Counted from the first letter of the stretch, positions 25,876-28,973 are shown. The stretch: DNA of 64,000 bases from Nannocystis sp. RBIL2 (GCF_026626745.1 NZ_JAPNJW010000002.1:1318151-1382150); one strand, 5' to 3'. The notes: generated by a model not told the origin, from the sequence alone. Numbers and translations are program-made.

Positions 25876-28308
25876 TCACCCCTGCGCGCGTGCCCCCGCC
25901 ACCCGCGCCGCCACGCGAGCGCGGCGATCCTCGCGAGCCCACCGCGCCAGCGCCCCCAGCAGCCCCAGCGCCGCGAGTGGCCACAGCGGCGCCAGCGGAT
26001 CGCGCCGCGCCTGGCGTTCTGCCCACGTCGCCGGCCGCTCCCACGCGAACCGCCGCGTCTCCGCCGACTCTGGCGCCAGCCCGTGCCGCCCGCGCACCTC
26101 AGGGTCCAGCTGCGCGAACGGCTCCTCCGCACACGTCACCTGCGCCAGCACCCGCACCTGCTGTCGCGCCGCGAAGTGCTCGCGCGGATCGCTGCCGGGC
26201 GGCGGCAGCGGAGCCCGCAGATTCTCGAGCAGCACCTCGCGCGGCGGCTCGCCCCCGTGCTCGAGCGCCCAGCGGCGGCACAGGTAGCGCGCGTGCCACG
26301 GCGCCAGCCGCTCGCGCTGCCCGAGCACGTTGTCGCCGATCTTCCGCCAGCGGTCGTGCCACCAATACGGCCGCGGCGCGTCATCCTCGCGCTGCGGCTC
26401 CGCGCCGAAGCGATGCCGTTTCCCCGCCGCGTCGACCACCGTCGCCCGCAGCAGGTTCTGCTCGCGCGGCGGGTTGGGGGCGAACATCGCCCACACCTGG
26501 CTCGTGAAGCTCAGCTCGATCCACGGCCCCACCAGCGCCCGCGCCTGCGCGCGCCACGGCACGCTCGGCCAGGCAGGCAGCTGCCACACCAGCAGGGCAG
26601 CCACGTGGTACGCGACCAGCCCGCCCGCGGCGAGGCGTCCTGCCGGCCCGTGGGCCCACGGCTCGCGCAGCTCGATCACCGCGCCTCGATCGCGCCGCGC
26701 GATCCGCCAGCCGACGATCGTCAGACCTGTCCCTGCGGCCAGCCACGCCGCGTGCCATGCCCGAGGCCCAACCCCGCCGATCACCGCGATCGCCCCGCCG
26801 GCCAGCACCAGCCCGCCTGCCCCCGCGATCGCCCACCCCGGCAGCGCCGCCGCGTCGCGGTGCAGGTGCGGCAGCGACGGATCCTCGCAAGCTGTCTCTT
26901 CGCGCAGGTTCTCGGGGACAGGCACGCCGCGCCGCGCCAGCCCGCGCAGCGCTCGCTGCAGCGTCGCCACCGCCCACGGACCTGCCCCACAGACCAGGTA
27001 GACGCTCATCGTCGCCGGCGCGAACGCCCCCACCGCCAGCAGCGCGTGGTTGCCGAGGTGGAACAGCAGCCCGAACCCGAGCCACCACTTCGGCGCCAGC
27101 GGTCCCGCGGCCAGCCGCCGCGCCGCCGCCCCGGCCCGTGGCCCCGCGATCGCCACCGCCGCGCACACCGCGGCCAGCACCGCCAGTGTCGCCGCACGCT
27201 CGGCCGTCCCCGGTATGCCTGGCTTTTCGACCAGGTCCTCCGGGACAGCCGCAGCGATCGCCGCCGCCGCCGCCAGCCCGCCCCAGCACAGCCGGGCCGC
27301 CGCCGCCGCGGGCCCGCGCAGCGCCGGCGTCCCCGAGCGCGCGAGCGCCCGCGCGGCCAGCCCGACCAGCACCAGCGGGAACAGCCGCTCCCACCACATC
27401 ACGCCCCAGCCGGCCAGGCGCAGCGGCCACGGCCCCATCGCCGCGATCGCGGCCGACATGTCCCAGCGGACATACGTGTCGCGCAGCAGCACGAACTGCA
27501 GCACGTCCCCCGTCTGCCACGACGTGCCCGCCTTGACCCAGCCGTTGGCCGCGTAGCAAAGCGCCAACTGGCCGGCCATCAGCGCCTGCGGCCAGGCCGG
27601 GATCCGGCGATAGATCGCCGCCAGCCCGTGCGGCGCCGCGGCCGACGGGGCCGCGCCCGCACCCGCACCTGGCCCCGAGGGCATGCTCAAAAGGCCATGT
27701 CGTCGCAATGCCCGGCAGCGGCGCCAGTTGTCGACGCTGTAGGCCGCCCCGCAGCGCGACCACATCAGCAGGAACAGGAACGCGCAGAACACCTGCTCTC
27801 CGCCCCAGTGGGCCTCGCCGCGGCGCAGCAGCCCGGCGTAGAGCAACCACGAGGCGATCGCGCTGAGCCGCGTGCGAAACCCCAGGGTAAGCGCCAGCGC
27901 GGCCGCGAAGAGCAGGCCGAGGTGTACGCCGACCACACCCGGACTGTCGGCGAAGTAGAGCGGCGACCACCGACCGCTGCTCACGAAGTCGAGGACCGCG
28001 GTCGCATCGAGCGGGCCCGCGGGCTCGCGCACCCCGTCGCCGAAGCCGATCAGCGCCCCGCGGCCCATCCGCTCCGGAACTGCGGCCCGCGGCAAGAGCC
28101 CCTCGTCGGAGAACAGATACGAGGCGAGCGGCGCGACTTCGAGCAAGTTGACGAGTAGACAGCAACCGAACGCGATCCGCAGCAGCGCCAGCGGCCGCGG
28201 GTCGACCGCGCGCAGCAGCACCCGGCGCAGCCCCTCGCGGTATAGAGCGACGAGGCCGACCAGGCTCGCAGCCGTCAGGGCGAGCGCCACCGCGAGTCCC
28301 GGAGACAC
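25876..28308 (-). CDS. HTTM-domain (vitamin-K-dependent gamma-carboxylase-like) integral membrane protein, apparently with two HTTM-like halves
   Basis: N-terminal LLRIAFGCCLLVNLLE HTTM start; many TM helices; conserved C-terminal block PWIELSFTSQVWAMFAPNPP. Confidence 0.75.
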   Translation of the reverse strand: MSPGLAVALALTAASLVGLVALYREGLRRVLLRAVDPRPLALLRIAFGCCLLVNLLEVAPLASYLFSDEGLLPRAAVPERMGRGALIGFGDGVREPAGPLDATAVLDFVSSGRWSPLYFADSPGVVGVHLGLLFAAALALTLGFRTRLSAIASWLLYAGLLRRGEAHWGGEQVFCAFLFLLMWSRCGAAYSVDNWRRCRALRRHGLLSMPSGPGAGAGAAPSAAAPHGLAAIYRRIPAWPQALMAGQLALCYAANGWVKAGTSWQTGDVLQFVLLRDTYVRWDMSAAIAAMGPWPLRLAGWGVMWWERLFPLVLVGLAARALARSGTPALRGPAAAAARLCWGGLAAAAAIAAAVPEDLVEKPGIPGTAERAATLAVLAAVCAAVAIAGPRAGAAARRLAAGPLAPKWWLGFGLLFHLGNHALLAVGAFAPATMSVYLVCGAGPWAVATLQRALRGLARRGVPVPENLREETACEDPSLPHLHRDAAALPGWAIAGAGGLVLAGGAIAVIGGVGPRAWHAAWLAAGTGLTIVGWRIARRDRGAVIELREPWAHGPAGRLAAGGLVAYHVAALLVWQLPAWPSVPWRAQARALVGPWIELSFTSQVWAMFAPNPPREQNLLRATVVDAAGKRHRFGAEPQREDDAPRPYWWHDRWRKIGDNVLGQRERLAPWHARYLCRRWALEHGGEPPREVLLENLRAPLPPPGSDPREHFAARQQVRVLAQVTCAEEPFAQLDPEVRGRHGLAPESAETRRFAWERPATWAERQARRDPLAPLWPLAALGLLGALARWAREDRRARVAARVAGARAQG

Positions 28309-28397
28309 CGGTCCATTGTACCCGACGCCGCGCGGACCCGGTCCCGCGCTGGCAGATTTTCTGGTCGCCTGCGCCCTCGATCTGCTAAGGTCCGGGC

Positions 28398-28973
28398 ATG
28401 TCTTCGCTTATCGACTGCCCCGAATGCGCCTGTCTGTTCCGAGCCTCCGACGCGACCTGCCCGTTCTGCGGTCACGTTCAGCGCCACTCGCTCGGCTCGA
28501 CGTGGGCCGCCGTCGCCTTCACCGCCAGTCTGGGAGTGATGGGCGCCGCTTGCCAGGTCGACCGCGACATCGGCGACGAGACGTCGGCCACCGCCGCCGA
28601 CACCGTCGACACCGCCGATACGGTCGACACCTCGATGGTCTCCGAATCGACCAACCCGGGCGGTGACACCGTCGACCCGACGATCACCACCACCTCCAGC
28701 GACGGCGCCACCTATGCCGGCCCCGACGAGGAGTGGGACACGTGGGGGGACACCACCACCACGACCACCGATACGTCGACCACGACGAACACCACGCCGG
28801 GCACGACGACGACCACCACGACCAACAGCACCAACGACTCGTCCGACGCCAGCACCTACGCCGGCCCCGACGAGGAGTGGACCACGTCCGACTGGACGAC
28901 CTCCGACGACTCGTCCGACGCCAGCACCTACGCCGGCGCCGACTCGTGGGAGCCCAACGGCCAGGGCCGCTGA
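28398..28973 (+). CDS. Small protein with an N-terminal zinc ribbon (CPEC...CPFC), one TM helix and a Thr/Asp-rich acidic repetitive tail
   Basis: CxxC-N16-CxxC; repeated DASTYAGPDEEW units; high GC3. Confidence 0.6.
   Translation: MSSLIDCPECACLFRASDATCPFCGHVQRHSLGSTWAAVAFTASLGVMGAACQVDRDIGDETSATAADTVDTADTVDTSMVSESTNPGGDTVDPTITTTSSDGATYAGPDEEWDTWGDTTTTTTDTSTTTNTTPGTTTTTTTNSTNDSSDASTYAGPDEEWTTSDWTTSDDSSDASTYAGADSWEPNGQGR

Follow-up and report, generated by a model that had tools for sequence, protein, structure and literature searches.

The radical S-adenosylmethionine (rSAM) enzymes known as spliceases include PlpX, which excises tyramine at X-Y-G sites and whose family is described by the model TIGR04103 (IPR026482) (PMC11002830; PMC11414181), and an X-Y-G rule has been formulated for tyramine splicing (PMC9811515). 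In human vitamin K-dependent gamma-carboxylase (GGCX), Lys218 is the catalytic base, Trp223 stacks on Lys218, Phe286 lies under the naphthoquinone, Phe299 stacks on CO2 and Trp157 is needed for vitamin K oxidation; Asn159, His160 and Tyr395 form the Glu-binding pocket, and the segment 374-418 is needed for gamma-carboxylation (10.1101/2025.02.09.637231; PMC12647623). The bacterial relative MloH is a real carboxylase that acts on Asp in a small-molecule intermediate, and is the only characterised bacterial HTTM/GGCX member that we found in the literature (PMC12647623; PMC12186529). Here we describe a locus of Nannocystis sp. RBIL2 in which genes for a splicease-like rSAM enzyme and a GGCX-like membrane protein flank a gene for a small acidic protein with a zinc ribbon. 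The window, i.e., the whole stretch of 64,000 nucleotides that was analyzed (NZ_JAPNJW010000002.1:1318151-1382150), is numbered from its first letter. In our judgement there is a slightly better than even chance that the genes between 25876 and 30583 form a three-gene protein-modification module that works in the steps proposed below. The three genes, and the gap that separates two of them, are as follows.

25876-28308, minus strand: GGCX-like (HTTM) integral membrane protein of 810 aa, with a GTG start and G+C of 0.79/0.59/0.90 by codon position
28309-28397, no strand: divergent intergenic region of 89 bp between the HTTM gene and the zinc-ribbon gene
28398-28973, plus strand: zinc-ribbon, lipobox-like, acidic Thr/Ser-rich protein of 191 aa, the candidate substrate, with an ATG start and G+C of 0.50/0.66/0.92
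29264-30583, minus strand: radical SAM/SPASM enzyme of the splicease clade, 439 aa

Long spurious open reading frames (ORFs) are common in the window because its G+C content is approximately 73%, and codon-position G+C was used for picking real genes. Alternatives overlapping 25876-28308 and 28398-28973 failed this measure, while these two ORFs passed it clearly; both the 810-aa HTTM ORF and the convergent partner of the rSAM gene, as called in an earlier sequence-only reading of this DNA, were thereby borne out. The ribbon gene is convergent with the rSAM gene across a gap of 290 bp and divergent from the HTTM gene across 89 bp. The HTTM protein is 100% identical to OV090_30530 of Nannocystis sp. 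RBIL2. The exact 191-aa sequence was missing, at 100% identity, from the protein collection searched, so that its gene may be unannotated in the source genome.

To follow these genes across genomes, GTDB species genomes were scanned with an alignment of the HTTM family and 80 loci were fetched; as a reverse test, metagenome loci were fetched with the rSAM protein as query. In all 11 orthologous genome loci, including those of Paraliomyxa and several metagenome-assembled genomes, an HTTM gene (46-93% identity) stood beside an rSAM gene (77-97%) and a ribbon/Tyr-motif gene. Likewise, an HTTM gene was found in 11 of the 12 rSAM-seeded loci that had an rSAM at least 75% identical and enough flanking sequence. 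The ribbon gene sits between the other two in nearly all orthologous loci. Genes outside the trio vary between loci, and the conserved neighbours of the HTTM gene are the rSAM and ribbon proteins only. The sequence-only reading had set the HTTM and ribbon genes beside a unit formed by the rSAM gene and a gene for a major vault protein (MVP), and had suggested following their co-occurrence. The tie to the rSAM gene held in 11/11 orthologous loci; the tie to MVP did not, as an MVP gene adjoins in 5 of the 26 loci with an rSAM at least 75% identical, all of them from Nannocystis sensu stricto. As read from gene order, the conserved unit in Nannocystis-type myxobacteria is thus rSAM, zinc-ribbon protein and HTTM protein, and not MVP with rSAM.

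A paralogous trio was present in loci L075 and L078 (HTTM 36%, rSAM 59-60% identical), where all three genes share a strand, HTTM first, then the ribbon protein, then rSAM. The ribbon protein of this trio has the ribbon CPGCRRFV...CPFCG, the lipobox LAGC and the motifs ALYGPVTG and PLYGPPTG, and the HTTM genes of both loci belong to another clade in the HTTM tree. A trio in another HTTM clade, with another gene order, indicates that the linkage survives deep divergence and rearrangement. Co-conservation, with the paralogous trio included, also supports what had been suggested from the sequence, i.e., a protein-modification locus with the acidic repetitive protein as the best candidate substrate. 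The accompanying analogy to SdpB and DCC1-like systems found no support here, because Pfam and NCBIfam scans of the flanking genes gave no DCC1-like or SdpA/SdpC-type partner among the neighbours scanned.

More distant rSAM paralogues, at 57-74% identity, usually stand beside a gene for a ribbon/lipobox protein, which has a Tyr motif of its own, but beside no HTTM gene, as in Plesiocystis (ADYGGPP), an N. pusilla paralogue (SYYAGPP) and many metagenome loci; others carry IYGAP or DYGGAE. The finding that most such pairs, as well as the closer locus L097, are without HTTM would fit a rather unlikely alternative, in which rSAM and ribbon protein are a pair and the HTTM protein is a mere syntenic neighbour with an independent membrane function (e.g., quinone or lipid chemistry) that leaves the tail untouched. 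It would also fit that in approximately 66 of the 80 fetched HTTM-family loci neither an rSAM nor a ribbon protein is encoded within 10 kb, that HTTM proteins form a large paralogous family, often in tandem pairs, and that the Glu-pocket residues of GGCX are not conserved. However, the adjacency is kept down to 46% HTTM identity though the flanking genes change, and it recurs in the second HTTM clade with its other gene order and same-strand, operon-like spacing. Moreover, in a paralogous locus of N. pusilla (L082, 3970-5982) a 670-aa PMT_2 (GT-C glycosyltransferase) protein occupies the divergent position of the HTTM gene, which suggests a slot for a tail-modifying membrane enzyme and, more generally, that different periplasm-facing enzymes may be pluggable into the same module. 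A ribbon/lipobox gene that follows an HTTM paralogue in L055 was left uncounted, as it is not kept in the related loci L050, L032 and L042.

The reading of the 191-aa protein as the substrate draws on the following features of its sequence, in which AF2 stands for AlphaFold2 and pLDDT for its per-residue confidence.

28416-28469, plus strand: zinc ribbon CPEC-x10-CPFC (aa 7-24), AF2 pLDDT 77-85, beta strands
28488-28553, plus strand: hydrophobic segment (aa 31-51) ending in the invariant Cys52, lipobox-like ...GAAC, AF2 helix at aa 34-45
28701-28727, plus strand: Tyr motif copy 1, DGATYAGPD, then EEW (aa 102-110)
28845-28871, plus strand: Tyr motif copy 2, DASTYAGPD, then EEW (aa 150-158)
28917-28943, plus strand: Tyr motif copy 3, DASTYAGAD (aa 174-182), near the C-terminus

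In the family of 34 homologues, C7, C10, C21, P22, F23, C24 and C52 are invariant. The CPEC...CPFC ribbon (aa 7-24), the hydrophobic stretch (aa 31-51) and the acidic, Thr/Asp-rich repetitive tail are all as the sequence-only reading had described them; it had missed that its "TM helix" (transmembrane helix) ends in an invariant lipobox-like Cys. Other points it had missed are the membership of the rSAM in the tyramine-splicease clade, the Tyr followed by Gly or Ala at the heart of the repeat, and the ribbon as a module of the rSAM system. In the AF2 model the ribbon is folded and the tail, below pLDDT 60, is disordered. The three tail motifs have the consensus D-[AG]-[AS]-T-Y-A-G-[PA]-D, and across the family (D)-A-S-T-Y-A-G-P-D-E is nearly invariant and occurs in 2-3 copies, while the rest of the tail drifts freely.

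Tail and lipobox statistics were taken from 33 non-identical family members encoded beside rSAM genes. Their tails consist of 24% Thr, 16% Ser, 15% Gly and 13% Asp with almost no Cys, and carry a net charge of -9 to -35 in 32/33 proteins. The residue preceding the Cys is A, S or G in all 33. A MYXO-CTERM sorting signal ends several of the homologues, which fits an exported, surface-directed tail. A tail Tyr is followed by Ala or Gly in 42 of 48 cases, as against 19% expected from composition, in counts that are not phylogenetically independent; no tail is without Tyr, and Tyr plus a small residue is the only tail feature kept across all clades. Glu as a conserved gamma-carboxylase target is weakened by TYGGPDS in distant orthologues and LYGPVTG in the paralogous trio. 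Asp at Tyr+4 occurs in every motif of the HTTM-linked orthologous clade, but also in L097 and L152, which have no adjacent HTTM gene, and is absent in L075/L078; it is treated as phylogenetic signal and not as independent evidence.

Second copies of ribbon/Tyr-motif genes were seen in L006 (12572-13300, plus strand), L011 (4424-4900, plus strand) and L094 (5108 and 5511, plus strand). The copy in L006 resembles the MYXO-CTERM-ended homologue P0098, and the two in L094 lie in tandem and have S-A-Y-A-A motifs. The annotated N. pusilla homologue P0073 has an out-of-frame internal stretch (PPPRPPIRRPRR...) in place of the Thr-rich segment and the second motif, probably through an assembly or annotation error.

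The rSAM enzyme matched Pfam Radical_SAM at 89.7 bits and SPASM at 17.5 bits, which is sub-threshold. Its CX3CX2C motif reads CDQHCAHC, and the seven-Cys SPASM pattern is complete (C276-x17-C294; CRECYYAETCMAGC; C367). Among NCBIfam models, TIGR04103 scored 429.8 bits (model positions 5-387 of 412) and TIGR03913 416.2 bits, with the next family at 155 bits. Both scores are under the equivalog cut-offs of 725 and 591.75 bits, respectively. By these profile scores the enzyme sits in the tyramine-splicease clade, approximately 275 bits above all other rSAM families, and is the equivalog of neither. In the window T-Y-A-G occurs three times; its counterpart is T-Y-G-G in orthologues and L-Y-G, D-Y-G-G, I-Y-G or P-Y-G in paralogous systems. 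X-Y-G is therefore found in the relatives, and the window motif is a Gly-to-Ala variant of it.

We consider it likely that the rSAM and ribbon proteins are enzyme and substrate. That the reaction is tyramine excision is held at even chances, because the site in the window is Tyr-Ala and not Tyr-Gly. A somewhat unlikely alternative is that the rSAM acts on the Tyr motifs by other chemistry (a C-C or C-O crosslink, hydroxylation or epimerisation) in an otherwise unchanged module. The scores below the TIGR04103 and TIGR03913 cut-offs and the Y-A-G motif of the window are compatible with it, as is the chemical diversity of SPASM maturases, reflected in many weaker NCBIfam matches. Tyramine excision is favoured over such chemistry by the gap of approximately 275 bits between the two top families and every other one, and by the fit of the only cross-clade tail feature, Tyr plus a small residue, with the X-Y-G rule (PMC9811515). 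Gly at Tyr+2 also argues against one of these products in particular. Lacking a beta-carbon, Gly disfavours a three-residue cyclophane.

The zinc ribbon itself provides a second link between the ribbon protein and the rSAM system. Soil loci, namely L114 (5726-7354) and approximately 40 similar ones (L112-L158), carry TIGR03913-type enzymes, with a score of 552.8 bits in L114. The cassette encodes, in order, a 70-aa peptide with AKYGDIDGL, the rSAM and a 65-aa zinc ribbon, whose ORF lies in a different frame and has an 8-nt overlap with the rSAM stop. Because this ORF matches TIGR03913 model positions 419-470, the ribbon belongs to the enzyme in that family, and in the NCBIfam model it is fused to it. 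Profile hidden Markov models (HMMs) of substrate-borne ribbons matched enzyme-side ribbons with E-values down to 5e-7, and the reverse, enzyme-side HMM matched substrate-borne ribbons at 5.5e-7 to 5e-3; reversed-sequence decoys reached at best 0.08-0.17. The ribbon of the window clade was tied to the enzyme-side ribbons via a combined HMM and intermediate sequences. On the strength of these profile matches, the zinc ribbon of the 191-aa protein is a homologue of the ribbon at the C-terminus of TIGR03913 enzymes, and the reciprocal matches indicate that it is a module of the rSAM system that moved to the substrate N-terminus. By likeness to the Y-protein or leader helix of spliceases (PMC11414181), it may serve as a docking or activating element for the rSAM.

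It is highly improbable, in our view, that the ribbon protein is instead a membrane-anchored accessory or regulator (an rSAM anchor or an anti-sigma-like sensor), with another protein, e.g., the MVP or the HTTM protein, as the real substrate. Many membrane regulators do have a zinc ribbon ahead of a TM segment, and in Nannocystis the MVP gene lies 169 bp upstream of the rSAM gene on the same strand. Against this, MVP is missing from 21/26 orthologous loci and the conserved unit holds no sigma factor gene, and all that is conserved in the disordered tail is the short, repeated motif with Tyr, a feature characteristic of modification sites rather than sensor domains. In addition, no alternative small YG-peptide ORF was found in the intergenic gaps searched (28960-29280, 30570-30770 and 25480-25890).

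The third partner, the 810-aa protein, can be divided as follows.

26929-28308, minus strand: N-terminal HTTM transmembrane domain (aa 1-460), Pfam HTTM 29.0 bits, with equivalents of the GGCX quinol and CO2 sites
27532-27534, minus strand: codon of Lys259, the equivalent of GGCX Lys218, invariant in 21 aligned family members and aligned to GGCX "GVKKLDADW"
26002-26577, minus strand: C-terminal soluble domain (aa 578-769) between two TM helices, with a W-x-MFAPNPP motif and invariant Cys residues C677 and C726

With the full-length protein, Pfam HTTM (PF05090) scored 25.2 bits, under its gathering score of 27.7; the N-terminal 460 aa scanned alone reached 29.0 bits, marginally above that threshold, and PF05090 is precomputed for most of 72 homologues. 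An AF2 model built with 21 homologues had a predicted template-modelling score (pTM) of 0.83. When it was compared with the PDB by Foldseek, the 16 top matches were all human vitamin K-dependent gamma-carboxylase (best E-value 4e-8 over approximately 700 aligned columns), and the predicted three-dimensional fold is accordingly GGCX-like. The HTTM-family profile matched the GGCX sequence with an E-value of 5e-4 in four co-linear segments, with low scores for the individual segments. In this alignment K259, W264, F416, F429 and W168 are the equivalents of GGCX K218, W223, F286, F299 and W157, and each is invariant or at least 90% conserved in the HTTM family.

The sequence-only reading had seen two HTTM halves in this protein. 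They did not hold up: residues 1-460 and 461-810 are dissimilar (BLASTP E-value 0.98), and the C-terminal 254 aa (approximately 557-810) have no Pfam family at E<=10. In the architecture found, a single HTTM domain is followed by additional TM helices and then by a C-terminal soluble domain, and the protein closes with one more TM helix. The AF2 model gives the soluble domain a mixed alpha/beta fold, and we infer a periplasmic site for this domain.

The long-form HTTM family is small and taxonomically narrow. It comprised 72 clusters in a collection of 5.8 billion sequences, all named ones from Nannocystis, Nannocystaceae or "Myxococcales", 211 representatives at E<=1e-30 among 1.84 billion sequences, and 290 copies in GTDB species genomes, where one genome has several copies, frequently in tandem. 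HTTM-like proteins of 800-1000 aa (L012-L028, L032, L050, L055 and others) make up a large paralogous family in the Nannocystaceae, usually with no rSAM nearby. A "family" of approximately 150 aa beside HTTM genes in 27 loci was rejected as an artefact that high G+C produces, namely a shadow ORF antisense to the 5' end of the HTTM gene.

Combining these lines of evidence, we propose the following order of events. The 191-aa protein would be made in the cytoplasm, where its zinc ribbon may dock with or activate the neighbouring rSAM, as a leader peptide or Y-protein would. As family membership and motif suggest, the rSAM would then act on the Tyr of the x-Y-[A/G]-G-P motifs in the disordered tail. 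The hydrophobic segment and Cys52 would next direct export and probably lipidation, by which the ribbon would be cut off and the acidic Thr/Ser-rich tail left tethered to the surface. Finally, the GGCX-like membrane protein, in which the Lys that deprotonates the quinol in human GGCX and the Phe that stacks on CO2 are both retained, would act on the exported tail. The most plausible reaction would be a menaquinol- and O2-driven carboxylation, or a related base-requiring reaction, at or beside the motif, with the Asp at Tyr+4, the adjacent Glu or the enolisable ketoamide carbon as candidate sites. That the protein is exported and lipidated at Cys52 and loses its ribbon seems to us about as probable as not, to judge from the lipobox-like segment. 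Action of the GGCX-like protein on the same tail is an evenly balanced proposition, to which conserved linkage and active-site residues both speak, and it is doubtful that this action would be carboxylation as such.

Several points weigh against this scheme. The analysis itself supplies the genes and their conserved linkage, a modelled fold, conserved residues, the motif and the homology of the ribbons, while the chemistry of every component is something we infer. The order of events is possible, but it asks a cytoplasmic rSAM to act on a protein that has its own export signal before that protein leaves the cytoplasm. The orthologous loci come from related organisms, so that they cannot be counted as independent of one another. 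In L097, rSAM and ribbon protein occur with no HTTM gene, and in L089 a metalloprotease-like gene takes the position of the ribbon gene beside rSAM and HTTM. As most rSAM/ribbon pairs occur without HTTM, the HTTM protein is not needed for the core reaction. The enzyme, as given above, falls short of both equivalog cut-offs, and the site in Nannocystis proper is T-Y-A-G and not X-Y-G; splicing at Tyr-Ala is unreported in the literature found. The lipobox is atypical when compared with the pattern [LVI][ASTVI][GAS]C, position -3 being L, V or I in only about one third of the sequences (L, V or F in 13/33 proteins, and otherwise T, G, S or A), and its n-region is an unusual 30-aa zinc ribbon. The Glu after the motif is not conserved, distant orthologues having TYGGPDS. 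The Glu-pocket residues N159 and H160 of GGCX align with G169 and G170, in a poorly scoring segment of 1.3 bits, and no equivalents of GGCX D263 or of the segment 374-418 were obtained in the profile-to-GGCX alignment. Because of the Gly-Gly pair and these unplaced parts, a substrate residue other than Glu is possible.

In L089, the gene between rSAM and HTTM (approximately 5030-6600) encodes an HExxH metalloprotease-like protein of approximately 500 aa with a MYXO-CTERM end. The surroundings of the trio in the window include the following.

23781-25490, minus strand: KGGVGR-motif AAA ATPase fused to TPR repeats (NF047398, 101.9 bits), downstream of the HTTM gene
29147-29176, no strand: perfect palindrome of 30 nt, ATGACCTCGGGGACATGTCCCCGAGGTCAT, in the gap where the zinc-ribbon and rSAM genes converge
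30753-33290, minus strand: MVP-like gene of 845 aa (MVP_shoulder 104 bits, with Vault_3 and Band_7)

The ATPase-TPR gene is kept beside the HTTM gene only within Nannocystis sensu stricto. The MVP-like protein is 93-99% identical among Nannocystis species; other Nannocystaceae have no such gene in their rSAM/HTTM loci. The 89-bp divergent region gave no match to a sigma-70-type promoter, a model that is uninformative for this organism. The centre of the palindrome is a palindromic 10-mer, GGACATGTCC, with 36 sites in the window at no more than one mismatch, as against 1.9 expected (e.g., 701, 18421, 25704, 25774, 29157, 35074 and 61380). By impression and untallied, its copies are often intergenic. 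The 10-mer and the palindrome might be a repetitive extragenic palindromic (REP)-like element, a bidirectional terminator or a regulator site, which is only a guess.

Spliceases and GGCX-like HTTM proteins are known kinds. What appears to be new, against the literature found, is the zinc-ribbon/lipobox/mucin-like precursor family with its Tyr-Ala site, the migration of the ribbon between enzyme and substrate, and the conserved pairing with a GGCX-like enzyme. No Pfam or NCBIfam model covers any of these, and a literature search on splicease together with myxobacteria, zinc ribbon or lipoprotein returned nothing relevant. The 2022 splicease survey (Scott et al., Chem) may already list some rSAM/YG pairs of the Nannocystaceae; it reportedly covers 27 confirmed and 939 predicted systems and is said to place YG-rich splicease-like enzymes in 189 bacterial genera.

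The linkage described here ties a GGCX-like enzyme, with the catalytic Lys and the CO2-site Phe, genetically to one small acidic protein with repeated motifs, and so provides a testable protein target for a bacterial carboxylase homologue. If the proposal is true, splicease chemistry would extend from secreted peptides to exported, lipoprotein-like proteins and to a Tyr-Ala site, and the zinc ribbon would be a recognition element, on enzyme or substrate, of use for engineering. Should only its ordinary parts hold, they still define, within clear limits, a substrate family, unannotated until now, for a large rSAM clade of the Nannocystaceae. Alpha-ketoamides are protease-inhibitor warheads (PMC9811515), and a surface-tethered inhibitor would for that reason be reasonable for predatory myxobacteria; as a biological role, it is only a guess. 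The boldest version, which we regard as distinctly unlikely, is a first natural protein-substrate system for a bacterial homologue of the vitamin K-dependent carboxylase that also involves ribosomal backbone splicing. Signal peptidase II would cut off the zinc-ribbon leader, the cytoplasmic splicease would install alpha-ketoamide warheads, and a menaquinol-dependent GGCX-like enzyme would modify the exported tail, by carboxylation or otherwise, giving predatory myxobacteria a protease-inhibitor-like or Ca-binding coat protein tethered to the surface.

Compared with known systems, the locus shares with the TIGR04103 spliceotide systems (PlpX/RhaX) a full-SPASM rSAM, for which TIGR04103 is the best NCBIfam match, and a substrate gene that adjoins the enzyme gene and encodes 1-3 short motifs of Tyr and a small residue, often Y-G/A-x-P. 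As in non-cyanobacterial splicease types, the layout has two components and no separate Y protein (PMC11414181). The precursor differs, however, in not being Nif11/NHLP-like and in having a zinc-ribbon "leader", a lipobox-like export signal and a mucin-like acidic tail of 90-150 aa; further differences are the T-Y-A-G site in Nannocystis, the score below the 725-bit cut-off and the GGCX-like membrane enzyme as a conserved third partner.

The cassette of the TIGR03913 "GDL motif peptide-associated radical SAM/SPASM maturase", the second-best match, resembles the locus in its homologous zinc ribbon and in a short peptide with ...KYGDIDGL.... There the ribbon is found at the enzyme C-terminus or in an overlapping ORF, whereas here it is at the substrate N-terminus and the enzyme is without it; TIGR03913 loci are also without a lipobox, a long tail or an HTTM partner. 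For the order of modification and then export there is a precedent in anaerobic sulfatase-maturating enzyme (anSME), a cytoplasmic SPASM rSAM that modifies a protein with an export signal before its export. The order is that of the rSAM and export steps proposed here, while the chemistry (formylglycine) and the substrate are different and the sequences are close only at the level of the SPASM superfamily.

With respect to GGCX, the 810-aa protein is only approximately 13-15% identical, does not conserve N159/H160, leaves D263 and 374-418 unplaced in the alignment, has a C-terminal domain with no sequence relation to anything in Pfam, and comes with no identified propeptide-like recognition element. 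The two are nevertheless alike in keeping the equivalents of K218, W223, F286, F299 and W157 and in combining a membrane domain with an extra-membrane C-terminal domain. The likeness to a GGCX-type system extends to the genetic level, where the HTTM gene is linked to an acidic protein with repeated D/E-containing motifs.

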